Positions 2,905 to 33,315 of a stretch of 53,694 nt of DNA are shown in pieces. Both the position numbers and the translations under genes were made by a program. This DNA is from a virus. Its lineage: Duplodnaviria > Caudoviricetes. The notes under the pieces were generated by a model. That model saw nothing but the letters and a program-made list of their open reading frames with translations. It made no database searches and was not told the DNA's origin. Where the stretch lies: the IMG/VR virus record IMGVR_UViG_3300027736_000062, positions 1-53,694 of that record. One strand, given 5' to 3'. Each line of letters starts with the position of its first letter. The stretch's first letter is position 1.

Positions 2905-4173
2905 TTAGCAATTCACAGCTCCACCACGCTTTTTAGCGGGTGACACTGTGACTGACTCTTTGGTCTTTGTGACGCTGTCAGTTTTGGGCATCGAGGAGAA
3001 CAGGTCTTTGGCCACGCTCTTCACTTTACCCATCACCTTGCCGGGGAAGCCACGGATCGACTTGGCCATGGCCATATCGTCCTCGTCAGGCCCCATTGCC
3101 TTGTCGTAAGCACCTTTTGAGAGGTCGACAGTGCCGCCCTCCGCAAGCTTCATACGGCTGGCTGGACCATACTTCTCGTTCGTGTCCATTTTGGCGGCAC
3201 GGAACGCAGGAGCATTCTCAGAGGTAGACATTTTCTGCAAGCGACCTTGTGCGGGCGTTACTTTGCCACCAGCCTTGTAAGTACCAGCGAGTTCGTTGAT
3301 TCTTACGGGCTTGGAGGCGGGCTTGCGACCTTGAGGCATCGCGACGGGACGACCTGAATTAACAGTTCCGCCCGCCGCGTAGGCTTTTTTTGTGGAACCG
3401 CCTTTTTTGTACATGGCGTCACCCATCATGCCTTCGCCCATCATGCCGCCGTCCATCATGCCTTTGACCTTGCCGCCTTTTTTGTAGCCGCCGCCGTTTG
3501 ACTTGGCAACACCACCAGTAGCAAAGCCACCGCCATTGCCCAGCTTCACTCCACCAGTTTTGGCGGGTGAATGGTCAGGCTTGGCCGTGTCCATCTTGGT
3601 GTTGCGATATTCGCCGCCTTGGTCTTCGGTGTTGATGATGCCGTCGCCAGCAACCCCACCTTTGGCCATCTTGACGTCACCGCCTTTTTTGTAGCCGCCT
3701 TGGCCATTGACAACGCCGCCAGTGGCCATCTTGCCGCCCTTTTTGAGCTTCAATGAAGTGCCTTTGCCGCCTTTGTGCTCTTGCATGTCGTGCTGCTTGA
3801 AAGCCTTTTTGATCATGGCCTTGTCTTGCGCCATGTCCATCTTGCCGCCTTCAGCCTTGCCGCCTTTTTTCATTGCAGGCATACCCATAGGGGCCTGCAT
3901 TTGAGCAGCGCCGCCGATTGGGCCAGCAGGGCCAGCACCAGCGGGCATGCCCTTCATGGCGCGGCGACGCATAGCCAGCGAAGGCTTCATGGGAGCGCCA
4001 GCCATCGGCATGCCGCCACGGGCAGGCATCGCAGGAGGGATGTCAGCAGCGCTCATGGGCGAACCCATCATGCCACCGTCAGCCTTCTTGGCCACCTTGC
4101 CGCCTTTTTTGAGCTTCAGTTCAACTGAAGGCTCAGTGGTCTCCATTTTGACCATTGGTTTAAATTGACCCAT
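2905..4173 (-). CDS. Low-complexity Met/Lys/Gly-rich protein with many [FYML]xxGG repeats (putative internal head protein)
   Basis: AAGGAG SD before ATG 4173; repeats KKGGKV, MATGG, YKKGG, MAKGG, FATGG, YAAGG, YKAGG, LAEGG. Confidence 0.8.
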   Translation of the reverse strand: MGQFKPMVKMETTEPSVELKLKKGGKVAKKADGGMMGSPMSAADIPPAMPARGGMPMAGAPMKPSLAMRRRAMKGMPAGAGPAGPIGGAAQMQAPMGMPAMKKGGKAEGGKMDMAQDKAMIKKAFKQHDMQEHKGGKGTSLKLKKGGKMATGGVVNGQGGYKKGGDVKMAKGGVAGDGIINTEDQGGEYRNTKMDTAKPDHSPAKTGGVKLGNGGGFATGGVAKSNGGGYKKGGKVKGMMDGGMMGEGMMGDAMYKKGGSTKKAYAAGGTVNSGRPVAMPQGRKPASKPVRINELAGTYKAGGKVTPAQGRLQKMSTSENAPAFRAAKMDTNEKYGPASRMKLAEGGTVDLSKGAYDKAMGPDEDDMAMAKSIRGFPGKVMGKVKSVAKDLFSSMPKTDSVTKTKESVTVSPAKKRGGAVNC

Positions 4174-4183
4174 GTCGTTCTCC

Positions 4184-5161
4184 TTATGCTTGTGTGACGC
4201 CGAGAGCGCCAACACGGGTTGCATTTGGGCCTACCGCAATTGCAGGCAGGGCGATTCCCATTACGAGACGTTTGATACCGTCACAGGCCGATGAGGGCAG
4301 GTAAGTGCCCCTTACGTCACCAGTTGTGGTGGTTGCTGTAGCAGTGGCGGCAACAGTCATAGTGCCAGCATCTTCAGCCAAAGTATTGTCCCAACCAGCG
4401 CGGGTAACGTAACCTCGATCAGTGATGCGCAATGGTGCACCCAAGATGTCGGTTGTACCTACCGCAACAGTTACCACACTTCCGCCAGAAGCAGTGACAC
4501 TAGAGATCTGGTAGAAGGCTTTTTTACCGTTGACAGTTGTTGATGCCACTGTTCCTGTTGCAATTACTTCGCTCATGGCTTGACCGTAGTAGTCGTAGCC
4601 AGAAACAGTAATGTTGACAGAAGTCGGAGTACCAGCACCTGTGGTTGTAGAAACCGCACGAGGGCAGTCAAGCTGCAAGCCTGTTGCGCCGCCTTGAATT
4701 GTGGCGGATGTAACACCAGCACCTGCGGCCAGCGTGAGCGTGGTGGCAGTTGTGATAACAGCGGCAACAATGTTGGTTGTCAACTTAGCCTGTGGTACGG
4801 CGTCCCAAATATAAACACGACCTAAAGGGCCAACACCTACGCTCATTGGGGACGGGTTTTGCAACAAAGCATTACCAGAACCAACGATGGTGGCGCTTGC
4901 TACGGTTTGCGAGGCGCTTACGGTGTAAGTTCCTACACCACCTGTGCCTGTACCAAAAGCGGTAATGTAAGTTCCATTGGTAAGGGACGTTGAGCTGTCA
5001 ATAAACATACCCACAGCAATTGGGTCACCAGAAAGCAAGGCGGTGACGGTCAATGTGGTGGTAGCGATTGAGCCAGTGAAAGTTGAAACAGCAGGGTACT
5101 GGTCCATACCTTGAACGGTAAGGGCGGAACCCAGAAAAAGATCATCTGAAAATTGAGGCAT
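4184..5161 (-). CDS. Capsid-decoration/structural protein with inserted Thr/Gly-rich beta module
   Basis: AAGGAG SD before ATG 5161; immediately downstream of the major capsid gene. Confidence 0.65.
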
Positions 5162-5233: not shown

Positions 5234-6148
5234 TTACATGCCGGGTGTACCGTACATTGCACGCGGGTCGGTGAACCCGGGGATGTAACGCTCGGTAGCC
5301 TTGTAGCGCATGGAGTCGGTTTCAAAATCGCCTTCCATGGTCTTTTCCAGCTTGCGACGCATCAAGAGCTTCATGCCCTCGGGAGCGTCGGTTTGTACCC
5401 AGAATGCTGTAGGGCTGGTTAAGCGGCTGATAACAGCAGCGCCTTCATCCAACAAGCCAATTGACTTGACAGGGTTCAGGTCGTTGTTTGCTGTACCAGA
5501 GCGCAGGACGCTCTTTAGCAGAACTTCGGCTTGGAAGACGTTGCCGGGGGCCACCACCAATTGGCGGGGCACAAGGCGGATCTTCTTGCCGTTGTTGTCA
5601 ACAGCTTGACGGATCTGGATCAACATCTGTTCCAAAGAAGTCTGGGACAGGTTGGCCGCAGTGGTCAACTGGTTGCTGAAAGTACCGTTCACGATGGGGT
5701 GGGCAGTGTTAATCAAAGACACGCCGTCGCCACCGGGGTAGCTGCTGTTGAACGCACGATTCAAGATGTTCGCGCACAGGGTCTCTTTTGTCTCGATCAG
5801 AGACTGAGCCAAGTGACGAGCATAAACCTGACCGATACGGATGTGGTCGCCGTCTTCAACCAACACTTTGGTCAACGCGAAGGCCAAGCCATACACGTTG
5901 TACACATAGCGTTGCAAGAAGAGCACGCCGCCCTGTTGATAGCTGACAGGAGTACCGTCAGGCAACTGGGGAGCCGCGCCAAAACCGTACAGGACGGGTT
6001 CTTCGTGGTAGTTACGGGGAATACCGTCTTGCTCGCGGAACACACGGCTCCACTCGTCGGTACGTTGGTCATAGACTCCGTCGAAGCATTCGTTGAGGAT
6101 AGGTTCAACAATACTTCTAAAGTCCGTACTGCGCATTGGTGCTGCCAT
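5234..6148 (-). CDS. Major capsid protein (HK97 fold, Mu gpT-like group)
   Basis: 304 aa; PRQLVVAP and EGDFETDSMRYKATERY...DPRAMYG motifs; follows scaffold and precedes a strong terminator. Confidence 0.85.
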   Translation of the reverse strand: MAAPMRSTDFRSIVEPILNECFDGVYDQRTDEWSRVFREQDGIPRNYHEEPVLYGFGAAPQLPDGTPVSYQQGGVLFLQRYVYNVYGLAFALTKVLVEDGDHIRIGQVYARHLAQSLIETKETLCANILNRAFNSSYPGGDGVSLINTAHPIVNGTFSNQLTTAANLSQTSLEQMLIQIRQAVDNNGKKIRLVPRQLVVAPGNVFQAEVLLKSVLRSGTANNDLNPVKSIGLLDEGAAVISRLTSPTAFWVQTDAPEGMKLLMRRKLEKTMEGDFETDSMRYKATERYIPGFTDPRAMYGTPGM

Positions 6149-6159
6149 TTTATTGCTCC

Positions 6160-6732
6160 TTAGATAGCGTTAATGGTAGCAACGTACTGGCTACGGGCGA
6201 CTTGCACCTGAACCACTGTATACGCATCGCCCCAAGCGTTGTCAACGCCGTTATACAAACCAATGATCCGCAGATCACCGACGTTACCCGAACCCACCAG
6301 TGAGGTTGAGATCATGCACTGTGACAAGCCTGTGGTCGTGGAACCAGCAGTAATGCTTGCAAAGTTGGCTTGATCGCCGATTGAGGTTTGCGCTAGGCTA
6401 CCGTTAGCCTGAATGTCGTACACGATATTCGGGTCAGAGTAGTAGTAGGTCACTTCAGAGCCAGTTTGGTAGGCGGTGTTGGCCACCCACTGATTGCTGA
6501 CCAGACGACGGCCCGTAGTATCAGTATACTCATGACCAGCAAAAGCACCTTGGAAGGCGCTGCCAGCAGTAGCAGCAATGATGTTTCCAGACGTATCAAG
6601 GGCCACAGGTTGGCCCTTCAAAATTCCGGTTGAATAACCGGAGGCAATACCGCCAGCGAGCGCCACAGCGCGATCCAGACCCGATGGGTGGAACGAAGGA
6701 CGCAGGCCGAACGGAGCAGAGGTTGCACTCAT
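6160..6732 (-). CDS. Capsid cement/decoration protein
   Basis: APFGLRP N-terminus and GQPV motif; directly upstream of the capsid gene. Confidence 0.6.
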   Translation of the reverse strand: MSATSAPFGLRPSFHPSGLDRAVALAGGIASGYSTGILKGQPVALDTSGNIIAATAGSAFQGAFAGHEYTDTTGRRLVSNQWVANTAYQTGSEVTYYYSDPNIVYDIQANGSLAQTSIGDQANFASITAGSTTTGLSQCMISTSLVGSGNVGDLRIIGLYNGVDNAWGDAYTVVQVQVARSQYVATINAI

Positions 6733-6754
6733 AATTAACTCCTTTGTTAAGTCC

Positions 6755-7297
6755 TCACCCGTGGAATACGGGAGTTTGGACGTTTCGGTTCAAATTGCCA
6801 AAGCCTTCGCCTTCAACACTTCCCAGACTTCTGCCTGAGCTATCGCGGTTTCCTTGAAGCTGCTCAACTTGGACCTGAACTTTGTCAGACTCCTCATTGG
6901 GCGCGTCATGGTGCATTTGAGTCATGACCTCCTGATAAACCTCCATTGGAAGCTTGTACAGGCGCATCTCATTGCACGCGATAAAACCAATGTCTTCGCC
7001 AGCCTTTACGCGGTAATTGTCGAACCCGGGTAACTCATCCGCTCTCACGGGAACATACCCCAGTCGCATCCGCTTATCAATACTGTCGTAGCCGTTGGTG
7101 GTTGATAACCAGCAAAGATGCCATCCCGGAATTTCCGGAACCTTCGGCAGCGCACTTTGTGTCCATTCATCGCTCCACATCTTGCGACGTTCCTGCTTTG
7201 AAATGAACGCCTCTTCTGGGGCAGCGCGTGACAAATCTTGTGAAGATCGGCTTTCACGGCCACCTGCGTTGAGGGTTTTTTTGAGACGAGAATCCAT
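6755..7297 (-). CDS. Conserved head-module protein of unknown function
   Basis: Between scaffold and cement genes; PGWHLCW...RLGYVPV pattern. Confidence 0.7.
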   Translation of the reverse strand: MDSRLKKTLNAGGRESRSSQDLSRAAPEEAFISKQERRKMWSDEWTQSALPKVPEIPGWHLCWLSTTNGYDSIDKRMRLGYVPVRADELPGFDNYRVKAGEDIGFIACNEMRLYKLPMEVYQEVMTQMHHDAPNEESDKVQVQVEQLQGNRDSSGRSLGSVEGEGFGNLNRNVQTPVFHG

Positions 7298-7302
7298 AAT
7301 GT

Positions 7303-8241
7303 TTAGCTCCTTCTGTTGCGTGCTTCAATAGCGTATCGTTTGATCATCTTGTTGCGTTTTTCTGGGTCATCCCAAAAACCTGCATCCTTCATTGCTCGGA
7401 CCTGTTCAGGTTCCAAAACAAATTGGTTGCCATTAACGCGACCAGACGATTCACGACTCGATCCTGTAACCACACTTCGGGGACTCCTTCTGGAAGGCTC
7501 GTCAGTGTTTCTAGTATAACGGTGTGGTAGCCGTTTTTGCAAGCGGTTGTCAAGCTCGTCCCAATAATCTTGGGTGGCAGGGTCCCAGCCCTCGGCAACC
7601 AGACGGTTGTCAATGACCTTGGCGATCTGAGTATCCTCATCTCCAGCCTCTGGGTCATACCAAGAGTTGCGCTCCATCCAGCCGTTGGCCAAGCGAACAA
7701 GCTTTGGATTGGCTGGCGCTGACTCCTGCGAGCTGGCGCGGGAGACCTGCTCCTTGTAGCTGTGCATGGCCTCCAGCTTGCGTCGGCTGTCGTACCAAAG
7801 CTCTTGGGCCTTGGTGAACGCCGAGCCGTCAGAGTTGTCCGTCGCCTCCTGCATTTTCTGCTGGGCGTACCGCAGACGGTACTCCTCGTCCTCCATGGCC
7901 TTGTCGTAACGGGCCATGTCCGCGCCCTGCGTCTTGCGCTCCAAAACGGCAAGGCGGTCCTGCATTTCCTGATTCTGACGACGCAGCAAGATCAGGTTTT
8001 GGTCCTTCTCCTCGTTGGTGCGCTTGATGTAGTCCTTCTTGGCGCGGCGGCGGTTGCGCCTTGCCTCTCGGACTGCATCAGTGTCGTCAGGGTGGTCGAC
8101 ATCACCGTCGTTGTCCTGATGAGTTTCAGACCCGTCACTTGCGTGGTCAGACATATGGTCTGGCAAATCCACCGTGACGGAGCCGTCTTTTTCCTCAACG
8201 ACGTTGAGATCTTCAATCTTTTCTTTGGCTTCAGTGCTCAT
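7303..8241 (-). CDS. Scaffolding protein
   Basis: Acidic N-terminus, coiled coil, W..RN.W motif, basic C-terminal helix; located between portal and capsid. Confidence 0.65.
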   Translation of the reverse strand: MSTEAKEKIEDLNVVEEKDGSVTVDLPDHMSDHASDGSETHQDNDGDVDHPDDTDAVREARRNRRRAKKDYIKRTNEEKDQNLILLRRQNQEMQDRLAVLERKTQGADMARYDKAMEDEEYRLRYAQQKMQEATDNSDGSAFTKAQELWYDSRRKLEAMHSYKEQVSRASSQESAPANPKLVRLANGWMERNSWYDPEAGDEDTQIAKVIDNRLVAEGWDPATQDYWDELDNRLQKRLPHRYTRNTDEPSRRSPRSVVTGSSRESSGRVNGNQFVLEPEQVRAMKDAGFWDDPEKRNKMIKRYAIEARNRRS

Positions 8242-8672
8242 AGGAATGCCCTCACAGCAAGTGGATCACCAGTCAACTTCGCAATCACTTCGTGATCGTT
8301 CAGGACCATAAACAAGGCGCGTTCTTCGTTTTCATCCTCGCCGGGGACGTGAACCTCCCAACGATCGCCACCCCACTTGGGCACGCGGATGTAATCGCCC
8401 TCTGTACACCAAGAGCCTTCAGGCCAGCCCAACATCGTGTCACGATGCTTAAATGCCAGCGGTCCGATCTCGATGACCTTGGCCACCATGTTTTGCCACT
8501 TTTCGGTTTCCTTGGTTTCTTCGACCAAAATAATTCCAGATGCAGTTGTTGTCTTTTTTGTGCGGCGAAGCTGAACTAACAGTCTTCCACCAAGAGGTTT
8601 TGCACCGGGATCTACGCTCGGAAATGCCCAAGCCATCTCAGCTTCGTTAGAAGCTACCGGGTTGTTACTCAT
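8238..8672 (-). CDS. groES: GroES-like co-chaperonin
   Basis: KPLGGRLLV...TASGIIL...KVIEIGP...GDYI...LNDHEVIA matches the Cpn10 pattern. Confidence 0.8.
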   Translation of the reverse strand: MSNNPVASNEAEMAWAFPSVDPGAKPLGGRLLVQLRRTKKTTTASGIILVEETKETEKWQNMVAKVIEIGPLAFKHRDTMLGWPEGSWCTEGDYIRVPKWGGDRWEVHVPGEDENEERALFMVLNDHEVIAKLTGDPLAVRAFL

Positions 8673-8847
8673 TCTCATCTTCCTTCATCAGGTTGTTTAG
8701 GATTTCGAGGGCCTCTTGCAGGCCCGCGTTGTGACCGACCAGTCGAACGTAAGACTCCCAGTTCGTCGCATTACCAGCAACGAGGGACGCGGCTATTTCA
8801 GCCTGCCTAGCCTTAATTCCACCAATCAGATCCGAGAGGGTTCTCAT
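8665..8847 (-). CDS. Small helical head-module protein
   Basis: Overlapping packing; W..Y...VG...GL motif. Confidence 0.7.
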   Translation of the reverse strand: MRTLSDLIGGIKARQAEIAASLVAGNATNWESYVRLVGHNAGLQEALEILNNLMKEDENE

Positions 8848-8996
8848 TTTTTCTTAGCCTGTGATAAGCCTCCTGACTGTTTGGTTGGGGTTGTGCTGCC
8901 ACCCTTCATGCTCTGGCCGTCGAGCTTTTCGCCCATAGCCATGCGTTTGTGCTGAGGCACATTGATGCTCTTTTGCTCTTGATCACTCGTTGCCAT
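8844..8996 (-). CDS. Small basic protein (50 aa)
   Basis: AAGGAG SD before ATG 8996; ATGA overlap with next gene. Confidence 0.6.
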   Translation of the reverse strand: MATSDQEQKSINVPQHKRMAMGEKLDGQSMKGGSTTPTKQSGGLSQAKKK

Positions 8997-11535
8997 AGTT
9001 TTCTCCTTGGGTTGGTACAGCCTTGCTTTGCTCGAAATTGAGCTTTGCCGCATCGCGTGTTAGGCGGGCTGTTTCGATGCGTTCTTTCATCTCTTGGTCG
9101 CTGGTTGCGATGGCCAACTTCATTTGCAAGTCTTCCATTGCTTCCTGCTGGTCCTGTTGCAGTTTGGCCATGTCCATTTCGATCTTGGCGGCCAAAGCTT
9201 TGTCCTTGAGGCCCATCTCTGCCTCGTCGCGTTTGGCGCGGCGCTGGGTCTCGGCCATGCTGGTGTCCAGCAGCACCTTGGTGTCTGGCGTCATCTGTGG
9301 CTGCGGCTTGAACTGCTGGAGACCCTGCACCAATTGCTGGATCACAGGCATGATGCCCTTGAGCGTTTGGTCCGCATCCAGCTCGACGTGCTGCGAAGCC
9401 AAGGCAAACAGTTTGTCCACCGCCTTGGGGTCTTTTTGCAAGTCGTAGTCCTCGAGCTTCTCGCCCATGGCCTTCTGGACGTAACCCGTCATGCGGTTCA
9501 AGTACCACAAAACAATGTGCTGCTTGATGTGCTCGACCGACTTGGGCAGGTAGGCTGGCGCAATGATGGGGTTGCCACCAAAGATCGGACTCTTTGCAAA
9601 GTCCAAGTGCGCTTGAATGTGGCCAAGGTGGTCCTGCTCGGGGTAGGCGTAGGCGGCTTGGCCAATTGCCATGGCCACGTTCTCGTTGGCCGCGTCCATC
9701 TTGACTGGCGCTGGAACGTCAACCATGATTTCGTTGATGCCGGGCACTTTGATCTGCTTTAGGAAGCGCTGAATCACCACTTTCTTGTTAAACAGCTCAG
9801 GATTTTTGTCCATGATGGCCATGACCGCTTGGGTCTGTGCCATTCGCTGGGTTTCGCTGAAAATGTGCGGGTCGGAGACCGGAATCACGTCGGTAACGCG
9901 GGCAAAGTCCTCGCGCTTGACCTCCAGATCCTCCACAACCTCGCCGCGCTGCATGTCATCCAAGTACCAACGGTTGATTCGGCTCAAAACCTTGAGCACA
10001 CGGCCCTGAGACTCGTGCAAACGGGCGTGAATGGAGCTGAATACGGCCGCACCCTGCTCAATCAGCGCCTGAGTCGTGCCAACCGGGGTGTTGGAGTTGA
10101 CGTCAGCAATTTTTTCCTCTGCGGTGGTCACCACGCCTTTGGCGGCGTTGGTCAACCAGCCCAAAAGCTCGAAAAGCACAGGCGATGGTGGGTTAAACGG
10201 CATGGGCATGGCCATTTTGCGCACGTCATCCACGCCGGGAGCGCCTTCGATCTCCACAACTTGCGTGACTTCAATTTCTTGGGACTGGCCAGAGATCTTG
10301 CCGCCCTTGAGCTTCAGGAGCGTCGCAGCGTTGTTGATGTGGGCAGAGTCCAACAGAGCACGCAAAGCGCCTGTAAGGGCCGCCGAGAGGCCGCCAATGA
10401 GCTGTGGCAGGCCAACTGCGTATGCACCGCGCCATGGAATGAATTTGAACTCAATCACCCAGTCCAATTTGGTGTAGGTGTCGTCGCCTTCTTCCCAGTT
10501 TCGGTACAGGCCGATCACCTCGGTCGACAGATCGTCGATCATCAGGATGTACGGGGCCATCTCGCCTTTGGTTTCGGGGTCGTCTTCCAGCTCCAGCCAT
10601 GTGTAGATGTGGTAGACCCGGCGCACGGCATCTTCGTTGTCGTTTTGCGACTTTCCTTCGACCTTGTTCGTGGCTTTTTGTGCCCCGGTCATCTCTGGGT
10701 CCATCGTTGCGCGGGTCATTGAGGTCTCGCGGTACAGGCCAGACTGCACGCGGCGCTTGTAATCCCAGTCGGAGATGTCGTCCACCTCGGTAAAGCGCTC
10801 GGCCGTGTAGAAGTTGCCTGATGCGTAGGGCAAAAGCACGTTGTCGATGGGCAAAAACTGGGCACAAGGGCGGCGTTTCTTCTCGTCGTACCAGAGCTTC
10901 ATGTATTGCGAGCCACCAAGCGGGAGCTGCGTCAGCATTTGCTCTTGCTCGTCGCGGAATTCCTCGATCTGCTCGGTCAATTGCCAGTTCATGTAGTCGC
11001 GTTTGCGCTCTGCAATGCTGGTTTTCTCTTCGGTGACGTCGCCCAAGATCTTGGTTTTGGTCGGGCCGTCAGGCGGGAACATCTCTTTGATGGCGCGGGC
11101 TGCAAAATCGATGCAGGTCTCGGCCATTACGGGGTGAACTACCTTGGATGCACCGTTGAAGTTGGCTCCGCCGGGCGCGTCATTGCCCATACCCGTGCGC
11201 TTGATGCCCTCTTCGTACTGCTTGTCGCGCTGCTTGCGTGCGTCCTTGTCCTTCTCGACCAGCTCGATGTACCGCAGGGCCATGGCGCTCAGGTCGTAGT
11301 CCTGAATCAGGTCGCTGTCAGCCAAGTTTTGGTAGAAGTCCTCGTCCTCCATCGGCCCCTTGGTGTCCATGGTGACCACCACGCTCCCGTCAGGCAGCTC
11401 TTCCAGCTCAGAGTTGGCTAGGTCAGGCATGTCAACAACCTGCGCCTCCTCTTCGCCCCCAGCTTCAGTGTCTTGGTCAGGGTTGCCGCCAACAAAGCGG
11501 TTAAATTCTGGGTCTATTGGGAATTGGGTTGCCAT
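8983..11535 (-). CDS. Portal protein (P22-like, long C-terminal barrel)
   Basis: 850 aa; VVHPVMAE, FPPDGP, PVGTT.AL.EQ, PVSDP motifs; Gln-rich coiled-coil tail. Confidence 0.88.
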   Translation of the reverse strand: MATQFPIDPEFNRFVGGNPDQDTEAGGEEEAQVVDMPDLANSELEELPDGSVVVTMDTKGPMEDEDFYQNLADSDLIQDYDLSAMALRYIELVEKDKDARKQRDKQYEEGIKRTGMGNDAPGGANFNGASKVVHPVMAETCIDFAARAIKEMFPPDGPTKTKILGDVTEEKTSIAERKRDYMNWQLTEQIEEFRDEQEQMLTQLPLGGSQYMKLWYDEKKRRPCAQFLPIDNVLLPYASGNFYTAERFTEVDDISDWDYKRRVQSGLYRETSMTRATMDPEMTGAQKATNKVEGKSQNDNEDAVRRVYHIYTWLELEDDPETKGEMAPYILMIDDLSTEVIGLYRNWEEGDDTYTKLDWVIEFKFIPWRGAYAVGLPQLIGGLSAALTGALRALLDSAHINNAATLLKLKGGKISGQSQEIEVTQVVEIEGAPGVDDVRKMAMPMPFNPPSPVLFELLGWLTNAAKGVVTTAEEKIADVNSNTPVGTTQALIEQGAAVFSSIHARLHESQGRVLKVLSRINRWYLDDMQRGEVVEDLEVKREDFARVTDVIPVSDPHIFSETQRMAQTQAVMAIMDKNPELFNKKVVIQRFLKQIKVPGINEIMVDVPAPVKMDAANENVAMAIGQAAYAYPEQDHLGHIQAHLDFAKSPIFGGNPIIAPAYLPKSVEHIKQHIVLWYLNRMTGYVQKAMGEKLEDYDLQKDPKAVDKLFALASQHVELDADQTLKGIMPVIQQLVQGLQQFKPQPQMTPDTKVLLDTSMAETQRRAKRDEAEMGLKDKALAAKIEMDMAKLQQDQQEAMEDLQMKLAIATSDQEMKERIETARLTRDAAKLNFEQSKAVPTQGENYGNE

Positions 11536-11800: not shown

Positions 11801-14800
11801 TCATCGCTCGTCCGCCGCCATGGCGTTGATGTTGTAGCCAAGTGCAGCAAGTGCAGCGGCGGGCGTCATGCCTTGGCGGATCAAAGCCACGGCCTTTGGC
11901 CAATCAGCCTCACTGAAGAACCTGCGGGTCTCTTGGATGTCGCCGCGTGTGCCACCCATCTTGGAGTCGCGCAGGGCCTTCGCTCGAATTGCTGAACGCA
12001 CATTTTCAGACTCACCAAGGTTCTGTGACACGGTGGGGGGCAGGTCCGCGAATGCGTTGAGCATGTCGGTGGTTGCCTCACCACTGTAGGGCGCGGTGGA
12101 CAGCGGGCCTTCGGGGCTGCGCTTACCAACACCGGGGACATACCCCATGGTACTCAAGCTCTTCTCTTGCGACGACGGGAAGATCTCCTCCAGCCCCTTG
12201 CTGCTCTTGCGCATCGCCTTTGACGCATCCTTGGGGTTCATAGTGGCGTCGTATGGGAACATCACAGCACCACGGTTGCTTGCCGTCACGCCAAAGCCTT
12301 GAGGGCCTACTAGCTCATTCATCTTGGCCAACTGCTCAGACGTAGGCAGCATGCCTGCGCTTGGGTCGCTCAGTGCTTCTGGGTTGAGGTCACGAGTGTC
12401 AAGCACCATTGAGTTCTTGCCCTTGGTGCTTTTCATGGTGTTGGGCAGGTTGTACGCGCCAGCCTCCTGCGCATCCATTAGGGCGCGAAACTGCTCGGCT
12501 GCGTCCATCATCCTGCGTGAGTCTGGAGCCATCAAGCCGCCACCACCCGTTGGGAAGTCCATCAAGGGGCGAGAAATTGTCATGGGGTTGGTCTCAGTAC
12601 CACCAAGGCTGTTTTGGTAATACCCCTCTGCTTGGCGCGTTGGGAGCTGGCGGTAACCTAGCGCACTGTAAATGGCGTCGCGGTTGCCTGCGCCCACCTC
12701 TGGGAATTCGTTTAGTGCAGCCTCGGGCGCAGGCATGTCAAAACGACCTTCGAGGCTGTAGGCAAGCTTCTCTTCGGGCGTCATGTTCAGGGCTTGTGGG
12801 ACGTGGTTCAAACGCGCCCCGGGGATCTGCTCCGCCGTGGACGACGCCGCGTGCTTGTACATGTAGTCGCGGGCGGTGTTGTTGGCGTCTTGCAGGGACA
12901 TCTTGATGCCCTCTAGCTCGTCGCCTTTGTACTGGCCTTTCTTGCCCCTGCTATACAGGTCCTGCGCCTTGCCATAGACCCATGGAACTTCTTGAATGTG
13001 CGGGCCTTGCCAGTCCGTGCGGCCACCAGTGCCTGCGGTGTTGGCGCGGTCCACTTGCAGCGCGGTCTCGGCGTCCATGAACGGGTGCATGGTGTCTGAC
13101 ACGCCAGCCTTCCACGGGTTGCCCTGTGGGTCGGTGTAGCCCATGCCTTGGGCACGGCGGAAGTCGTTCACACCGAACAGGCCTTCGTTGGGAATGCGTG
13201 GGTCGTTCTTGTTGGCGTATTCGCCGATCTTGAAGCCCATGTTGGCTGGGCGATCTTCGGCCACGGCGCTGTCAAGATTGCGCATGCCAGCACCACGGTA
13301 AGCCATCTGGGGGTCACCAGCGTTGCGGCTATTCAGGTGCTTGAGCGCAAAGGTCAACTCTGACTCAGGGCTTACGCCTGCGGAGTAGACGCCATGCTGC
13401 TCAAGCGTGCGGGGTAACTGGTAAGGCTCGCTGCTCTCGGCGATGCCCTGCTTGGCTCGGTCGTACCATGTGCCAAGGCGCTCAGGGTCTGCAAGTCGCA
13501 CGGCCTCGACAGAGTCAGCGAAGTCGGTGTCCATGGCGCGGCGCATAGCACCAAGGCCTTGGCCACTTGTCACCGTGCGGGGTGCGCCGATGTAGCCTTC
13601 TGCTGTGGGCTTGAGGTGCTTGCCTGCTCGGGCTGCTTTGAGCACTGCCTCGTCGCCTTGGTCTTCGGCCATCTTGCGGTAGACGTCAGGGGGCACAGCC
13701 ACGCGCTTGCCCGTTGACTTGGCTGGCTTGGCTGCTTGGTCCTCGGGGCTTTGGCTTGCGCTTTCCTTGGCGGCCTTCTCGACCTTCTTCTGGCGCACGG
13801 CCTCTTGCTCTTGCTTCTGGCCAAACTTGTCGATCACGGCCCGCTCTTCAGGCGTGCGGACCACGATAGGCTCAACGCCCTTGGGCGCTTTGCCCATGAG
13901 CTTCTCGAGGCCTTCCTTAACGATGTTCTTGACCTTGCCACCCTTGGCCATCTCGACGTCGCCCTTGATGGCTGACTCGGGCAGGATCATCTCGCCGATC
14001 TCACCACGCACGCGGTAGCCGGGTTCGTAGGGTGTGCGCTTGGCCTTGCCCGTCTCAGGGTCGATGATCTTCTTGCTGTTCCATGGCTCGCCTTCCCACA
14101 TGAGCTGGTTGCCATGACGTGATCGCTCGATGACCTCATAGGGCGCTCTGTTCTTCTTGGCGCTGTCCTCGGTGAACACTCGCTGGCCCTTGTCGTATTT
14201 GTAATCGAAGGCGTCCATCTGCTTCTTGGCTTCAGTGGCGCGGCGTCGCACCTCGTCGCCTAGCGATGTGTGGAAGTCTTGCAGGTTCGTCAGGTCCTTG
14301 GCTGCGGTGACTGGGGCCTTCATGCCAGCGGCCTCGGCTGCGCTCTCAATTGCATTTTTGGCCATGCGCTTGATTGCGCCACCACCTGCGTACTTGTAGT
14401 CCTTCTTGTTGCCATACTGAGGCTTGCGTGCCAATACCAGCGGGCCGATCTGGATGGCCTCTTCGGCTGCCGTGATGGGCTTCATGCTGCGGCGGTCGTA
14501 GAAGTAGCCATGGCGCTCTGGGTCCATACCGACCTGTGCCCACTCTGGGTGGTCGAGGTACTCTTGAGCGCGGGCCATTGCGGTCGCCTCATCCATCGGG
14601 TTCCAGTTGCCCTTGATGGTGGCGATCGTGCCCTTGGGCTTGCCTGCTGCAATGCTGAGGGCTGCCTTCTCGGACATGCCGAACGTGGGGTTCATCACGC
14701 CAGCGACGCTTTCATATCCAACGCGGTCGCCAGCTCCGAAGCCAGCGGCTTGGCGGTGAACTGCTGGAACCCACACGCCATGATCGCTGTAGGCAGGGAT

Positions 14801-15727
14801 GTCAAGGCGCAGGCCCACTGGGTCACCAGCTTCGAGAATGCCCGAGGGTGTGCCGTACAAGTCGCGCTTGTCTGCCGTCAGTGCGTTGACTGCGTCATCT
14901 CTGCTGGCAGGCTTGGGCACAAACTCGTAGGGCTTGACGGGCTTGTATTTCTTGACGAGCTTCTCGTATTCGGCGCGGGTCATCTCGTCGCCCTGAATCT
15001 TTTGTGCGCCCTCTTGCAGCTCGGGCACGCGCTTGGTCACGTCCTTGAAGTGCATGTTGATGCGGTCGACCATGGGCTTCAAGCCATCGACCACGCCCTC
15101 GACTGCGTCCTTCACAGCCTTCTTGACTGCGCCGCCCTTGGCGTAGGCTGGGCCTTCAATGATATGGCCACCGTCGGCCATGTCAGGCACGGTGCTGAAC
15201 ACCTCACCACCAGAGGCAAACTTCTGCACCTTGCCGTGCCAGACGTGCTCACGGCCCCTGTGAGAGGATGGAACGCCACCACCAGCCATGGCCCACTCTT
15301 TGAGGGACTGGCTCTTCTTGGGAACCGAATCGGTTTCGATTAGCTTTAGCTTCGGTAAGTCAATGGTCTTGAGTTTCTTGAGCATGTTCTTGCCTGCCTT
15401 AAATGTGCTGTAGCCGCCGGGGATCAGGCCTGCTGCCGCGCCAGCGGTCTCGGCGGCTGCGTCAATGTAGTCACCGCGCTTGACCGAATCGCCTGCGTGG
15501 CCAAGGTCGCGAGCGCCTTCCTCAAGTCCCATGGTGGTCCCGACGAACGGCACGAAGTCAGCAATGCCCATACCCATGGGCAGGTTGCTGCTGTCGCCGC
15601 CTGTGATGGTCTGTGCGTGCTTGCGGGCTTTGTAGCGGTTGACACCTAAGCCCTCCATGCCGCCTTGGAGTGCTGAGGCCATACGCTCTCGTATGGTTGG
15701 GTCGTATGCCCGCATTTCGTCAGCCAT
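11801..15727 (-). CDS. Large multidomain (polyvalent) protein with GG-motif linkers and a HhH-glycosylase-like domain
   Basis: About 1308 aa between terL and portal; segments delimited by MAGGG/FASGG/MADGG/YAKGG/YAGGG/MAKGG. Confidence 0.8.
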   Translation of the reverse strand: MADEMRAYDPTIRERMASALQGGMEGLGVNRYKARKHAQTITGGDSSNLPMGMGIADFVPFVGTTMGLEEGARDLGHAGDSVKRGDYIDAAAETAGAAAGLIPGGYSTFKAGKNMLKKLKTIDLPKLKLIETDSVPKKSQSLKEWAMAGGGVPSSHRGREHVWHGKVQKFASGGEVFSTVPDMADGGHIIEGPAYAKGGAVKKAVKDAVEGVVDGLKPMVDRINMHFKDVTKRVPELQEGAQKIQGDEMTRAEYEKLVKKYKPVKPYEFVPKPASRDDAVNALTADKRDLYGTPSGILEAGDPVGLRLDIPAYSDHGVWVPAVHRQAAGFGAGDRVGYESVAGVMNPTFGMSEKAALSIAAGKPKGTIATIKGNWNPMDEATAMARAQEYLDHPEWAQVGMDPERHGYFYDRRSMKPITAAEEAIQIGPLVLARKPQYGNKKDYKYAGGGAIKRMAKNAIESAAEAAGMKAPVTAAKDLTNLQDFHTSLGDEVRRRATEAKKQMDAFDYKYDKGQRVFTEDSAKKNRAPYEVIERSRHGNQLMWEGEPWNSKKIIDPETGKAKRTPYEPGYRVRGEIGEMILPESAIKGDVEMAKGGKVKNIVKEGLEKLMGKAPKGVEPIVVRTPEERAVIDKFGQKQEQEAVRQKKVEKAAKESASQSPEDQAAKPAKSTGKRVAVPPDVYRKMAEDQGDEAVLKAARAGKHLKPTAEGYIGAPRTVTSGQGLGAMRRAMDTDFADSVEAVRLADPERLGTWYDRAKQGIAESSEPYQLPRTLEQHGVYSAGVSPESELTFALKHLNSRNAGDPQMAYRGAGMRNLDSAVAEDRPANMGFKIGEYANKNDPRIPNEGLFGVNDFRRAQGMGYTDPQGNPWKAGVSDTMHPFMDAETALQVDRANTAGTGGRTDWQGPHIQEVPWVYGKAQDLYSRGKKGQYKGDELEGIKMSLQDANNTARDYMYKHAASSTAEQIPGARLNHVPQALNMTPEEKLAYSLEGRFDMPAPEAALNEFPEVGAGNRDAIYSALGYRQLPTRQAEGYYQNSLGGTETNPMTISRPLMDFPTGGGGLMAPDSRRMMDAAEQFRALMDAQEAGAYNLPNTMKSTKGKNSMVLDTRDLNPEALSDPSAGMLPTSEQLAKMNELVGPQGFGVTASNRGAVMFPYDATMNPKDASKAMRKSSKGLEEIFPSSQEKSLSTMGYVPGVGKRSPEGPLSTAPYSGEATTDMLNAFADLPPTVSQNLGESENVRSAIRAKALRDSKMGGTRGDIQETRRFFSEADWPKAVALIRQGMTPAAALAALGYNINAMAADER

Positions 15728-15911
15728 GATCAGTGCCTTTCGCTTGTACCCCTGAATCATAAACGGTGGCATCTGTCAAGTCCACCCTCTGATTCAGCCA
15801 GCGCTCGAACATGTCACGCGCCCAGTCCTTGTCGACAGGCTCATTCCATGAGCTTATCAACTCAAAGCGATTGGCGCACATTTCGACGCGGGCAGTTTGG
15901 TTAGATTGCAT
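15720..15911 (-). CDS. Hypothetical protein (63 aa)
   Basis: Bridges terL and the next gene with short overlaps. Confidence 0.55.
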   Translation of the reverse strand: MQSNQTARVEMCANRFELISSWNEPVDKDWARDMFERWLNQRVDLTDATVYDSGVQAKGTDHG

Positions 15912-17319
15912 ATGGGTTCACCCTTCGTACTCGGCCAGTGTCGGCGTAATCGTCTTCGTCCCATGTGTCGTCGGGCAGCGGGTCGATGTCCAGCCAGCCA
16001 GCGTCGCGCAGGTAGCGCAGGGCTTGGGTGCAGGCGTCCACGAGGTCGTCGTGCGTGGTCTCAGGGAATGAGCAGATCTGGCTCACGAAGCCCTCGGCCC
16101 AGTCCTTGACGTAGCCCTTGCGGTTGTCGCTCTCAGGAATCCACACCCGGCCTCGGGCGATGACGTTGGACACAATGTTCAGGCGCTGGAGCTTGTCCGC
16201 CCTGCCGGGGTTGTAGGCGCGGACGGGCAGGTGGGCACGTTGCAGGTCTTGGATCAACGAGATGCCCGCCGACTTGTCCTCGATCAACAGCAGGTCAACG
16301 CGCTTGCGGTCCTTGCCCTCACCGAAGACGGTCTCGTACTCCTCGATCACCTTGGGCCTCAAGTCAGGGTACATCATGCGCTCCTGCCAGCAGTCGATGA
16401 TCATGGCCGACATGGGGCCGTCCTGCGGCTTAAACACCCCGAAAGTAATGCAAGCGGTCGGGTCGTTCTGCGCCTTCTCTGATGTGGCCACATCGTAAGA
16501 CTGCAAAATGTACTCGAACTTGGGGAAAGCACGTCCTGCGGGCCAGAGCTTGAACATGTCGCGCTTGACGATGCCGCCCTCCTCGGGGTCGATGATCTCG
16601 GCGTAGATTTCCTGCCGCCCGAGCTTCGTGCCCTCATAAGCAAGGATCTGCTTTCTGAAGTTGTCGGACAGGTTGCCAAGGTTGGCGTAGGTCGAGGCGG
16701 TGGTCACCACCACGTCGTCACCCTCGCGGCCCATCAGCTCGATGATCAGGTCCTTGGGGCGGGGCGTCGTCGTGCAAATCATGCGGGTGCGCTTGCCCAG
16801 TCGCATTCCGAACTGGATCTGCGCCCATGCCTCGTCGATATAGTCCCACGCGGCCAGCTCGTCGCACCATCCCCCATGGAACTGAGGACCCCGGAAGCGC
16901 TCAGGCTCGCTGGCCGGGATGCCCTTGATCAGCGACCCGTTGGTCAACCTCAACTCGTGCGCGGTCTTGTTGTAGTCGGCCACCAGAGACTTGGGGATGA
17001 CGGTGATCAGGCCTGAGTCACCCTCAAAGCATGTGGCTCGGACGTCAGCGCTCGTGGGGGCGGCCACCAGCCAGCGCGTGCCGGGGTTCTCATATGCCCA
17101 CCACGCGATCTGCTCGGCTGCCGTGCGGGTCTTGCCTGCTCCACGGCCAGCCAGCATGAGCCAGATGGACCACCACTCGCCCGGGGGCAGCGTCTGGTGC
17201 TTGTGCTGGGTCTTGAACCATGACATGCGCCATGCCCATGCAAGCCGATACTCGGGGCTGGCCAACGCAAGGTACTTCTGCGTCTCCGGGGCAGCCACGA
17301 TCTCGGCTATGTCACTCAT
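15901..17319 (-). CDS. terL: Terminase large subunit
   Basis: Walker A AGRGAGKT, Walker B WCDE, TTTP coupling motif, RNase H-like C-terminus (SYD..., IEDK, HDDLVD). Confidence 0.95.
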   Translation of the reverse strand: MSDIAEIVAAPETQKYLALASPEYRLAWAWRMSWFKTQHKHQTLPPGEWWSIWLMLAGRGAGKTRTAAEQIAWWAYENPGTRWLVAAPTSADVRATCFEGDSGLITVIPKSLVADYNKTAHELRLTNGSLIKGIPASEPERFRGPQFHGGWCDELAAWDYIDEAWAQIQFGMRLGKRTRMICTTTPRPKDLIIELMGREGDDVVVTTASTYANLGNLSDNFRKQILAYEGTKLGRQEIYAEIIDPEEGGIVKRDMFKLWPAGRAFPKFEYILQSYDVATSEKAQNDPTACITFGVFKPQDGPMSAMIIDCWQERMMYPDLRPKVIEEYETVFGEGKDRKRVDLLLIEDKSAGISLIQDLQRAHLPVRAYNPGRADKLQRLNIVSNVIARGRVWIPESDNRKGYVKDWAEGFVSQICSFPETTHDDLVDACTQALRYLRDAGWLDIDPLPDDTWDEDDYADTGRVRRVNPYAI

Positions 17320-17902
17320 TGGCGTCGACCTGCTTGTTCAGCTCCACGTTCATGAGCAGGGCCGCAAGGTAGGTGTCGGCCTCGGACTGGACCTCGACCT
17401 TCACCGGGTTGCCGGGGTCGCCGCCCACCGCCACTTTGTTGCCGTACTTCTTGGGGTTCCAGCAGGCCAGCAGCTTCAGGCGGTGCTCGGCGCGGTTCTT
17501 GTTCCACGCGATCGATCCAGAGTCGTAGCGCTTGTTCCCCCCCTCGTCAAACACAGCCAGCGGCTCACCGTCCATGATGGCCAGTGACTCCTCGGCCAAT
17601 GCGTCGTAGCCAGCCTCGCGTGCGTGCGCGACCCGTAGGGAAAGACTGTCGTCGCGTGCCAACCACTCGTAGACCTGAGTCCAGTGCGGCATGTGCTCGT
17701 CCCTGCATATCTGCCTCATGGTCTCGCCCTTACCTAGACGTTCGCAAATCTCTGCTGCAAGCTCTGGTGTGTGCTTGCTTGGTCTGCCTGTCTTCTTTGG
17801 GGCTGTGGAGGTCTTTGCGGGCTGCGGGGCTACCTTACCCTTAGCTTTAGGCTTTGGGGCTGCTGTAGCTCGTTTTGATGGCTTTGCGGCGGTTTCTGGC
17901 AT
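17312..17902 (-). CDS. terS: Terminase small subunit (Sf6/P22-like)
   Basis: GRPSKHTPELAAEICERL..GETMRQIC..EHMP HTH; ...PKKYG; directly upstream of terL. Confidence 0.85.
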   Translation of the reverse strand: MPETAAKPSKRATAAPKPKAKGKVAPQPAKTSTAPKKTGRPSKHTPELAAEICERLGKGETMRQICRDEHMPHWTQVYEWLARDDSLSLRVAHAREAGYDALAEESLAIMDGEPLAVFDEGGNKRYDSGSIAWNKNRAEHRLKLLACWNPKKYGNKVAVGGDPGNPVKVEVQSEADTYLAALLMNVELNKQVDANE

Positions 17903-19829: not shown

Positions 19830-19893
19830 AGTATAACACCAGATTAAACTAAAATACGGCCAATGCAAAATATTTTCTAAGTAGTTTCCCTTA
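19830..19893 (-). promoter_or_regulatory. Early promoter cassette copy 1
   Basis: Extended -10 TGt-TATACT, GTTTAAT spacer motif, upstream AT tract and imperfect palindrome TAAGTAGTTTCCCTTA. Confidence 0.6.
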
Positions 19894-20655
19894 TGCCGCC
19901 TTGCCTGCTTCGAGGATCTTGTTGGCTGCGCTGAAGATGCGCTGGGCCGACTTATCGGTGATGTCTGCGCCTTGCAGCCAGTTCTGGATGTAGCCGCGTG
20001 ACTCGTGCAAGCCGGGCAGGTCCAGCACCGAGCACAGGATGTAGGCCACGCCCTCTGCCTCGACTTCGCGGATGTCGCGGGGTGTCACCTCGCTGTCGGC
20101 CATCACCTCGTCGGTGGTGTGGCCAAGGACGACGTGGGCCAGCTCATGGAAGCGTGTCTTGTGGGGCAGCACGGCCACTGGGTTGATGGCGATGGTGCGA
20201 CCGCTGGCGTAGCCTTGGCAGTTACCGTTGGGGTAGTCAAAGGCCACCTCGCTGATGTCCAACTTAACCAACGCGGCTGCCTTGTCCCATGCTGGGGTGA
20301 CCACCTCGTTGACATACTCGTCGCCCTCAGTCTGACCGAGCACGAACCAGTTATTGCGAAGGCTGAACATGCTGAACGACTCGCCAGTCTTTTCGCCTGC
20401 TGCGTCTTTTTTGTTGATGGTGAGGGGCATCACCAGTGCGATGGCCTTCTGGCCCTTGCTGACTTGGCGGCCCAGCTCGGACCACTTCTTGTAGGTGGCG
20501 ATGGGGCCGATGGGGATCTCGCGCTCCATGCACTGTGACCAAGCCAGCAGTTGGTTGCCGATGCTGTAGCCGTGAAAGGTGCTGTAGCACTTGCTGATGA
20601 TGCCGGGCTGGTTGACGGCGTCTTGAAGCAGTTGGCTGAAGTTTGCTTTTTCCAT
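19891..20655 (-). CDS. ArdC-like ssDNA-binding/zincin antirestriction protein
   Basis: FHGYSIGNQLL...ATYKKW.ELGRQV.KG.K N-terminal domain plus HELAH and E.EAE zincin motifs. Confidence 0.8.
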   Translation of the reverse strand: MEKANFSQLLQDAVNQPGIISKCYSTFHGYSIGNQLLAWSQCMEREIPIGPIATYKKWSELGRQVSKGQKAIALVMPLTINKKDAAGEKTGESFSMFSLRNNWFVLGQTEGDEYVNEVVTPAWDKAAALVKLDISEVAFDYPNGNCQGYASGRTIAINPVAVLPHKTRFHELAHVVLGHTTDEVMADSEVTPRDIREVEAEGVAYILCSVLDLPGLHESRGYIQNWLQGADITDKSAQRIFSAANKILEAGKAA

Positions 20656-23481: not shown

Positions 23482-23687
23482 GTCGCACTCCCAAACAATG
23501 CTTCGCCTGCGGCCACCGGAAAGTGTCCACCCCACGCCACGATCTGCTGCACGTCCATGTGTTCGAGAAACCCATCCACCGGGCTGATGCGGTACTCGAT
23601 CTGCCCCTCATAAGTCTTGACCTTGGCAATGCCCACGCAGCCCTTGGACCCGTTAAACCACTTCACCTTCAACGCTTCTTCGTTCAT
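23478..23687 (-). CDS. Hypothetical protein
   Basis: ATGA-coupled; WF...GCVGI...D.Q.I..WG..FP. Confidence 0.65.
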   Translation of the reverse strand: MNEEALKVKWFNGSKGCVGIAKVKTYEGQIEYRISPVDGFLEHMDVQQIVAWGGHFPVAAGEALFGSAT

Positions 23688-24085
23688 ATTTCGCTCACTT
23701 TCACTTTTAACATTCCACCGATTGACTCGGCCCAATAAATTCGCAGGTCGACAATGTTGCTGTCGTCCTCCCAAACACCTGCGTGAGTGCAGCCGTCAAG
23801 GACCGCCTTCAGCAAATTGTCAAGGTCGCGCCGTCTGTTGTCTGGCCTAAACGCCTCGATGTTCACGCGCAACTTCCCAGCATAGTGCTTGGCCCCGCGC
23901 TGAATCAACACTTGGTCGGCCACGGCCTTGCGGTAGGACCTACCCTCTGCGCTGATGATCATGCGACCTTGGAACGTGCGCCAATATTTGTTCACGCTTG
24001 GCGGCCACGGCAACGTGAGGGTGATCGCATTTTCGTTTTTGCTGATCACGTCCTCGAGCTGCTTTTGCAATTCTTCTAAGGTCAT
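23684..24085 (-). CDS. rusA: RusA-family Holliday junction resolvase
   Basis: LPWPPSVN.YWR...PDNRRRDLDNLLK...D......DDS. Confidence 0.9.
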   Translation of the reverse strand: MTLEELQKQLEDVISKNENAITLTLPWPPSVNKYWRTFQGRMIISAEGRSYRKAVADQVLIQRGAKHYAGKLRVNIEAFRPDNRRRDLDNLLKAVLDGCTHAGVWEDDSNIVDLRIYWAESIGGMLKVKVSEI

Positions 24086-25582: not shown

Positions 25583-26009
25583 TTGCATACCTCACTGCTT
25601 CGTCAATCCGTTGGTAGGCCGTGAGCATGCGCTCTCGGGTCTCCTCGTTTGGCATCTTGTTGTTAGCAATGTCAAAGGCCACGATCTGGACCACCAGCGC
25701 CTCAAAGTGAATGATGCGCATCAGGTCGCTTGCAAAGAACGCGGGCTTCATGCTGGGCTTGCCAGTCACAGGGTAATCTCGGCGCTTCTCGTCGGATGGA
25801 AAAAGGTCAGTCATGTCCATGCCAATTGCACCCAGCACGCTGGCCGTCTCGCAGCCTGCAAAGCAGTGCAGCAGCACCCTGCCATCCTCACCCTCACGAA
25901 CGGCCAGAGAAGGCCCCTTGTCGGCGTGAGCTGGGCAGCGGGCAGTCCATGAACCGTTGCGGCCCTTGACCTTGTCCAAACGCGAGATCAGATTCTCGAC
26001 GGGTGTCAT
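25575..26009 (-). CDS. Stand-alone primase-type Zn-binding domain protein
   Basis: ARCPAH.D..PSL.V......LLHCFAGC; no catalytic domain follows. Confidence 0.8.
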   Translation of the reverse strand: MTPVENLISRLDKVKGRNGSWTARCPAHADKGPSLAVREGEDGRVLLHCFAGCETASVLGAIGMDMTDLFPSDEKRRDYPVTGKPSMKPAFFASDLMRIIHFEALVVQIVAFDIANNKMPNEETRERMLTAYQRIDEAVRYANV

Positions 26010-31532: not shown

Positions 31533-31533
31533 C

Positions 31534-33303: not shown

Positions 33304-33315
33304 GTTTTTCTCCTT

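Follow-up and report, generated by a model that had tools for sequence, protein, structure and literature searches.

What kind of protein is encoded between the terminase and portal genes of the virus record IMGVR_UViG_3300027736_000062 (IMG/VR; Duplodnaviria, Caudoviricetes), and what is the role of the Gly-Gly motifs that divide it into segments? The record was analysed over its whole length of 53,694 bases (referred to here as the window); it is of the linear class, is rated 98% complete and carries nearly all of its long open reading frames (ORFs) on the minus strand. The ORF in question, designated P0001 (Table 1), had been described from its DNA alone (hereafter the original prediction) as an effector-like, MuF-independent cargo cassette inserted between terminase and portal, with domains that are swapped at GG linkers. 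There is little doubt that the middle modules of P0001 are exchanged at these linkers between related phages, and the evidence leans towards P0001 being a MuF-independent modular protein of the 'polyvalent' type that is encoded within the head-packaging module of a podovirus-like phage of ~54 kb and is delivered with the DNA.

Domain exchange at the GG linkers

A word-seeded search for homologues of P0001 identified 542 proteins at E ≤ 0.001 among 7999 scored candidates, with architecture counts being made on 354 proteins. The region from aa ~604 to aa 1323 (the chassis, C) was present in every one of the 120 homologues listed at 67-100% identity, with the middle of the protein found to vary. 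With N denoting the N-terminal leader, G the array of GG motifs, and A and B the two modules preceding the chassis, the architectures identified were N-G-A-C (20 proteins), N-G-[other]-C (15), N-G-C (9), N-G-A-B-C (7) and N-G-B-C (7), along with the reversed order [x]-B-A-[x] (9) and chassis-less forms [x]-A-[x] (43). Modules A and B vary independently of each other in presence and order, and in some relatives ART-PolyVal, PcfJ, LPD23 or ASCH domains take their place. Collinearity of the homologues over their full length, an outcome that would speak against exchange, was not seen.

Comparison of internal breakpoints of high-scoring segment pairs (HSPs) against P0001 showed 191/364 to lie within 10 aa of a motif centre and 272/364 within 20 aa, with 8.6% and 13.5%, respectively, expected under uniform chance. 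At the DNA level, loci without module B were collinear with the window to aa 461-465 and resumed at aa 604-621, with 8 nt separating aa 465 and aa 608 in L028. Identity to the window also differed by module, being 80% (N), 94% (A), 71% (B) and 99% (C) for L013, and 81% (A), 95% (B) and 81% (C) for L040. For L003, L004 and L007, identities of 95-97% were found for TerL and portal and 74-83% for C. When the part preceding the chassis was split at the motifs in 269 proteins, 344 segments of at least 70 aa resulted, which formed 104 clusters. Recognizable domains were found within such linker-bounded segments, namely the Pfam ART-PolyVal domain of P0029 (aa 488-636, within segment 453-658) and the Pfam ASCH domain of P0016 (aa 664-736, within segment 633-781), with further relatives carrying PcfJ, LPD23, SLT, GDSL-lipase and DUF6321 domains. 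The swapping of domains at GG linkers is thus supported by the architectures, by the clustering of breakpoints at the motifs and by the insertion or deletion of module B between aa 465 and 608.

The layout of four parts given by the original prediction was borne out by AlphaFold2, the N-terminal part being helical, A an alpha/beta domain, B a helix with a beta-barrel and C a multi-domain part; at least three separate confident bodies were predicted (A, B and the multi-subdomain chassis). For the N-terminal 640 aa, the mean predicted local distance difference test score (pLDDT) was 64.6, with confident bodies at aa ~240-460 (A) and ~505-605 (B), and values below 50 at aa 1-27, 72-149, 187-232, 462-476, 478-480, 482-501, 608-613 and 638-640. 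All six motifs were located at pLDDT below ~65, most below 50, and every junction motif lay inside a segment below 50. Predicted domains that span the motifs, which would also count against exchange, were not seen, the motifs being placed in low-confidence linkers between confident domains.

The octapeptide linker

The six [FYM]AxGG motifs listed by the original prediction were all found in their places on P0001, whereas shuffled versions of the protein contained 0.17 on average and 0/20000 shuffles contained at least six. The motifs at the three module junctions (aa 210, 461 and 608) share the pattern hydrophobic-A-x-G-G-x-[VI]-K-x-x-[AV]-K-x-x-[VIL]-E, in which the motif is followed by a Lys-rich amphipathic helix, modelled by AlphaFold at aa 216-228, 467-481 and 614-626. 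Junctions of relatives are often doublets (e.g. ...YAEGGEAHMAKGG...), and a periodicity of eight residues is visible among 1237 distinct motif contexts. As judged from sequence comparison, the linker is a hydrophobic-A-x-G-G-x-V-x octapeptide that is often doubled and is selected at the amino-acid level. A set of 88 motif instances was found to be encoded by 63 distinct 15-mers with Gly codon use near background, and selection therefore appears to act on the peptide. Of 98 long-N forms in which the chassis is at least 60% identical, 96 carry the motif upstream of it (0.63 per 100 aa), and the motif was found 0 times inside the chassis. The possibility that the Met of MAKGG acts as an internal translation start was dropped, as the spacing of the G-runs before it is poor and the residue is Tyr or Phe at many junctions.

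A further protein of the window, P0496, also carries the motif; its gene is situated downstream of that for the major capsid protein (MCP) in the virion module. This protein is Gly/Lys/Met-rich and disordered-looking, consisting almost wholly of KKGGxV and [FYM]AxGG repeats (four strict motifs), and had no PHROG match; a location inside the head or an association with DNA is possible. P0496-like ORFs (352-388 aa) were present in 3/5 records searched, corresponding to 3/4 complete relatives. Two [FY]AGGG motifs, 11 residues apart, were also observed near the C-terminus of the 2100-aa fibre protein encoded at 34296-40598.

The octapeptides could be cleavage sites of a Gly-Gly-directed protease (of the phage, the host or the chassis itself), making P0001 a polyprotein from which individual proteins are released inside the capsid or post-entry, for which the maturation of adenovirus and African swine fever virus polyproteins provides a parallel. 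Such processing would suit the presence of the motif on both sides of each module, often as a doublet like ...GGEVHMAKGG..., its retention at the amino-acid level with synonymous variation, and its persistence after module A in some stand-alone proteins, with P0496 sharing the motif as a possible co-substrate. However, no peptidase family was matched (Pfam or PHROGs) by P0001 or by the ~40 window ORFs scanned, P0001 is without cysteine and so is not itself a cysteine protease, the adenoviral consensus is offset by one residue from the motif, and any processed products would be hypothetical. Autoproteolytic processing of polyvalent proteins has been proposed for metallopeptidase domains (Iyer et al. 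2017, PMC5512222). Cleavage at the motifs, which is compatible with the delivery of P0001 with the DNA, is considered unlikely.

An explanation held to be similarly improbable is that the motifs are neutral Gly-Gly hinges, duplicated from one ancestral linker, with within-domain recombinants having been lost and with no role in binding, targeting or processing. The DNA of the three P0001 junctions, in which only short exact runs were found with a mean column identity of 73% over 81 nt, would be in keeping with a single ancestral linker and inefficient homologous recombination; in addition, the linkers are predicted to be flexible and distant polyvalent forms of the chassis are mostly without the motif (4/11 carry it). 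Neutral spacers should nevertheless drift, whereas the 1237 contexts retain both the hydrophobic-A-x-G-G-x-V pattern and its 8-residue period with synonymous codons varying, and G464 and G465 are among only 11 columns that are at least 90% conserved in alignment A3. The motif is furthermore repeated many times in P0496, an unrelated and disordered protein, and is also found in the large proteins of phages CRP-9 and ctYwJ313. We think that the octapeptide is more than a spacer.

The C-terminal chassis

The ~710-aa C-terminal part of P0001, which the original prediction had counted among the swappable cargo, was instead identified as an invariant chassis common to all relatives listed. It is C-terminal in 230/235 proteins reaching the chassis end, with N-terminal extensions of up to 1551 aa, and a full HMMER scan covering 1.84 billion representatives yielded 497 representative clusters at E ≤ 0.001. 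The AlphaFold2 model of the C-terminal 714 aa (62-sequence alignment) had a pLDDT of 92.4 and a predicted template modelling score (pTM) of 0.90, and on this model the chassis is predicted to consist of a DUF7178-like helical subdomain, two ferredoxin-like alpha/beta subdomains and a helical tail. Residues R744, W769, Y770, S797, K848, D870, H896, D900, E902, R909, Q927 and W931 are the invariant polar residues of the helical subdomain, with invariant R699 and H719 situated just upstream. Sixteen of the 17 invariant chassis columns lie at model residues 90-322 (P0001 aa 699-931), the seventeenth being G692 of the model (aa 1301).

Sub-threshold matches to DUF7178 (PF23802) were found for 11/62 chassis members (best 26.6 bits, E 6.5e-6, versus a gathering cut-off of 27 bits), mapping onto chassis residues ~133-323, and DUF7178 clusters were returned at 0.93-0.94 for the chassis by an ESM Atlas feature search. 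The chassis of P0001 itself showed no match to DUF7178 at E ≤ 1. None was found in five related records either, a search that was uninformative as the controls were also without a match. Foldseek against the PDB gave nothing at E ≤ 0.001 for the chassis or the N-half model (best chassis E 0.14), and a search of the PDB with the chassis family profile gave a single chance-level row (E 8.5). Neighbours in BFVD were exclusively uncharacterised proteins of uncultured phages, three rows being labelled 'Large polyvalent protein associated domain'. On these comparisons the modelled chassis appears to be without a solved structural relative.

The helical subdomain of the model shows a weak resemblance to the HhH-GPD fold, and the Lys-to-Asp spacing of K848...D870 presumably recalls that of HhH-GPD glycosylases. 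That the chassis is a late cytoplasmic DNA or nucleotide enzyme (e.g. an HhH-GPD-like glycosylase, or a DNA-end-binding protein acting during packaging), with modules that tune its job and nothing being injected, would agree with the concentration of invariant polar residues from R699 to W931 in or just before one helical subdomain and with the adjoining terminase genes, but is quite improbable, as no match to PF00730 (HhH-GPD) was found in the window, a comparison of the family profile (alignment A2) with Escherichia coli endonuclease III (Nth) by hhalign gave a probability of 0.3, and the near-zero cysteine content together with the ART-PolyVal, LPD and SLT fusions of relatives fit a delivered protein better.

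Genomic position and proposed delivery

Location of the gene between terminase and portal, as originally described, was confirmed by the matches of its neighbours to Terminase_6N and phrog_1216. TerL was found upstream on the same strand in 44/48 related IMG/VR loci and the portal gene downstream in 31/48, with many loci ending at contig ends, and the TerL end was separated from the chassis start by 482 to 4403 nt. The gene is thereby a conserved resident of the TerL-portal interval in this lineage, not one that has been inserted into it. At the divergent locus L044, TerL and portal are followed by a 233-aa ORF, which precedes the chassis protein, and a scaffold-like ORF of 373 aa lies between the latter and MCP; this is the classical MuF/gp7 position. 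The description 'MuF-independent' holds at the level of Pfam, with no match to MuF (PF04233) in P0001 or the whole record, compared to 5/14 control genomes that were matched. The records of L014, L038 and L040 (G006, G007 and G008) are complete at 54.2-54.7 kb with direct terminal repeats; the window record is linear.

P0001 was found to contain zero cysteine residues, as do 106/120 close homologues and 135/146 distant representatives. The cysteine content of the other ORFs of the phage is 0.39%, with 1.2-1.5% for TerL and the helicase. This absence would suit passage of the protein through the envelope in an unfolded state. Under the favoured explanation of a delivered, MuF-independent modular protein, a few copies of P0001 would be packaged in the head by the portal and would exit with the DNA as a flexible chain resembling beads on a string, with the chassis performing a MuF/gp7-like job and the middle modules acting early inside the infected cell. 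Among phage proteins, those of the polyvalent type are believed to encounter host defences first. The packaging of P0001 in the head and its ejection, taken as a claim of its own for which gene position and the lack of cysteine are indirect signs, is judged to be evenly poised.

A number of points weigh against this explanation. The modules of P0001 showed no match to effector families at Pfam or PHROG thresholds, and the term 'effector' used by the original prediction is therefore assumed by analogy and was not upheld. The relatives of the chassis protein are all metagenomic, the family being known from sequence alone. The HSP breakpoints stem from related sequences and are non-independent events, and breakpoints at linkers would also arise from the lethality of within-domain junctions. 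Among long forms with less than 45% chassis identity, the motif was present in 4/11 only, at background density; it is thus lineage-specific and not needed for polyvalency in general.

Position and the means of ejection provide two further such points. The chassis gene of L015, a complete ~38-kb relative, is located beside an endolysin and an integrase gene without adjacency to TerL or portal. Its 874-aa product is encoded at 5551-8175 (plus strand) after the endolysin-like gene and is abutted by the tyrosine-integrase-like gene at 8730-9722 (minus strand; phrog_1, E 3.3e-40), which represents a temperate context. Three consecutive cysteine-free ORFs of 530, 589 and 325 aa were observed in the window at 29949-34293 (minus strand), adjoining the giant tail fibre gene on its upstream side; an N-terminal glucosaminidase/endolysin-like domain (PF01832, E 6.8e-12) is encoded by the first of them. 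These are plausible candidates for ejection or internal virion proteins, and with such a set present P0001 need not be ejected.

Comparison with known systems

Polyvalent proteins were defined by Iyer, Burroughs, Anand, de Souza and Aravind (2017; PMC5512222), with their packaging in the capsid being inferred there. Such proteins are, like P0001, large and multidomain, encoded beside portal and terminase genes and combinatorial in architecture. P0001 has at least two globular domains and a virion-gene setting in a phage with a portal-terminase system, two of the features by which the class is recognized, and relatives of its chassis carry the signature domains ART-PolyVal (PF18760), LPD23 (PF18838) and PcfJ (PF14284). 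Unlike members of the published class, P0001 itself is without a Pfam polyvalent domain (0 families at E ≤ 0.01); its sequence also had no match among PHROGs at E ≤ 0.001 or in the PDB at E ≤ 1. Its family further differs in the ~710-aa C-terminal chassis, apparently not named in PMC5512222, and in modules that are split by a fixed octapeptide. The main text of that paper makes no mention of 'linker' or 'glycine', and its supplementary files may list the chassis family. A literature search identified no description of the linker grammar or the chassis, and no paper on DUF7178. Relative to the literature searched, the fixed octapeptide junction rule, its sharing with P0496 and the DUF7178-like chassis would be new, with the polyvalent theme itself already known.

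MuF-domain polymorphic toxins and the minor head proteins SPP1 gp7 and Mu gp30 (compare PMC5512222) resemble the P0001 family in combining a conserved head-module protein with variable domains at a portal-proximal position. However, P0001 is without a MuF domain, the polarity is inverted in that the conserved part is C-terminal in its family with the variable parts located N-terminally or internally, and there are several modules per chain in place of one C-terminal toxin. For a further large polyvalent protein, the 2811-aa gp47 of phage phi24B, proteomics revealed its presence in virions, and a role as an encapsidated ejection protein has been suggested (10.64898/2026.04.10.717836). gp47 and P0001 are alike as large polyvalent proteins of ~55-58-kb podoviruses, and differ, on a comparison made by domains only, in that gp47 carries LPD5, LPD1, LPD38 and a MuF-C metallopeptidase domain; in the part of that report consulted, GG-linker grammar is not reported for it.

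Module A was identified at 32-39% identity in Roseobacter phage CRP-9 gp54 (1395 aa) and in UOF80731 (994 aa) of Caudoviricetes ctYwJ313. Both proteins contain F-[AN]-x-GG motifs and are encoded in the head module, directly after the portal gene and before MCP, but they are without the chassis ([x]-A-[x]) and are annotated as hypothetical proteins. A CHAP-like hydrolase at the N-terminus of CRP-9 gp54 was considered and dropped, with no Pfam support at E ≤ 0.05.

In polymorphic toxins the borders of exchange are marked by VENN (CdiA) or DPxGL (Rhs), and in the tail-fibre adhesins of T-even phages by Gly-rich motifs or His boxes. P0001 resembles these systems in that short conserved motifs border the domains exchanged. 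They differ in swapping one terminal domain or hypervariable loops, whereas P0001 has several internal modules, every one of them flanked by one and the same octapeptide; moreover, the P0001 motif also builds a separate repeat protein, P0496.

Other parts of P0001 and features of the phage genome

The frame of P0001 given by the original prediction was correct, along with the motifs in it, and the end that it placed at position 15727 is the third in-frame ATG, internal to the frame (Met16). The first ATG is at 15772, preceded by a Shine-Dalgarno-like run, GAGGGTGGA. Called N-termini of relatives align at residue 5 or 16, and the true start of P0001 is therefore uncertain by 4 to 15 codons. The N leader is conserved in close relatives only, and a transmembrane segment within it was rejected (maximum Kyte-Doolittle score 1.24).

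Module A appears from its gene distribution to be autonomous, as numerous other large phage proteins contain it and it also occurs by itself, in proteins of ~230-340 aa encoded on long phage contigs. Some of these stand-alone proteins retain F/Y-x-x-GG-x-V close to the C-terminus. Its homologues numbered 888 at E ≤ 0.001 among 8000 candidates of 727-2316 aa, with 255 among shorter proteins. The only matches among 50,697 deposited phage genomes were to module A, in CRP-9 gp54, CRP-207 and ctYwJ313. Sub-threshold matches to PF25735 (Phage_L5_gp82) were located inside module A of four proteins (E 0.0046-0.038), with none in P0001 itself, and the same label was precomputed for seven stand-alone or short homologues; module A may thus distantly resemble L5 gp82. 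No usable match was returned by an ESM Atlas search with module A. The modelled fold of module B may be that of an SH3/Tudor-like small beta-barrel.

A search of 185,579 species genomes for hosts or prophages matched a single 3.5-kb contig of a metagenome-assembled genome (MAG), and no host is therefore inferable. No tape-measure or sheath genes were seen among the window annotations, which fits a podovirus. A Cpn10/GroES-like protein (PF00166, E 8.8e-7; phrog_3188) is encoded between the portal and capsid genes at 8238-8678 (minus strand) and has a mobile-loop-like stretch reading TASGIILV; a likeness of the linker motif to the GroES mobile loop was considered and dropped, this stretch being without GG. 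The 2100-aa product of the fibre gene at 34296-40598 (minus strand) contains collagen triple-helix repeats (PF01391, E 1.4e-26) and was matched by many tail-fibre PHROGs. A 254-aa product matching phrog_7245 'anti-restriction protein' (E 5.9e-12) is encoded at 19891-20655 (minus strand), immediately upstream of the packaging module.

Table 1. Coordinates of P0001, its parts and motifs, and other genes in the window
Feature	Position	Strand	Remarks
P0001, whole ORF	11801..15772	-	1323 aa, one open frame; alternative start Met16 = 15727
N leader, aa 1-157	15302..15772	-	helical, low confidence, pLDDT mostly <60
G array, aa 158-215	15128..15301	-	four [FYM]AxGG, spacings 23, 13 and 12 aa
MAGGG	15275-15289	-	starts aa 162, G array
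FASGG	15206-15220	-	starts aa 185, G array
MADGG	15167-15181	-	starts aa 198, G array
YAKGG	15131-15145	-	aa 210-214, G/A junction
Linker helix + module A, aa 216-465	14378..15127	-	alpha/beta domain ending in YAGGG
YAGGG	14378-14392	-	aa 461-465, A/B junction
Linker helix + module B, aa 466-612	13937..14377	-	long helix + small beta-barrel ending in MAKGG
MAKGG	13937-13951	-	aa 608-612, B/C junction
Chassis, aa 613-1323	11801..13936	-	in all relatives listed; C-terminal in 230/235
Helical subdomain of chassis, aa ~739-966	12875..13558	-	most invariant polar residues
TerS	17312-17902		PF20901, E 3.3e-29
TerL, upstream neighbour of P0001	15901-17319	-	Terminase_6N, E 1.6e-25
Portal, downstream neighbour of P0001	8983-11535	-	phrog_1216, E 5e-13
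MCP	5234-6148	-	Phage_capsid_4, E 3.7e-10
P0496, second motif-bearing protein	2905-4224	-	439 aa, KKGGxV / [FYM]AxGG repeats
SU10-adaptor-like protein	840-1901	-	PF24175, E 1.3e-4
RusA resolvase	23684-24085	-	E 2.8e-17
DnaB-like helicase/primase	24572-25588	-	phrog_239, E 2.7e-59

Implications

A more speculative proposal, put forward tentatively, is that the octapeptide represents a functional short linear motif code of this lineage, common to P0001 and P0496, with the DUF7178-like chassis acting as a MuF-independent vehicle. The code might tether the cargo modules to the packaged DNA or to the capsid interior for ordered co-ejection; alternatively, a Gly-Gly-directed maturation protease, as yet unrecognised, might cleave at the motif, and P0001 would then be a true polyprotein in a tailed phage. 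If this proposal is true, any domain bracketed by the motif would be loadable on the chassis, giving a natural plug-and-play delivery system. With hundreds of natural variants on one chassis and a readable junction rule, loadability, processing and the role of the chassis become testable, and the linker rule, if functional, could serve as a guide for engineering phages to bring proteins of choice into laboratory bacterial hosts.

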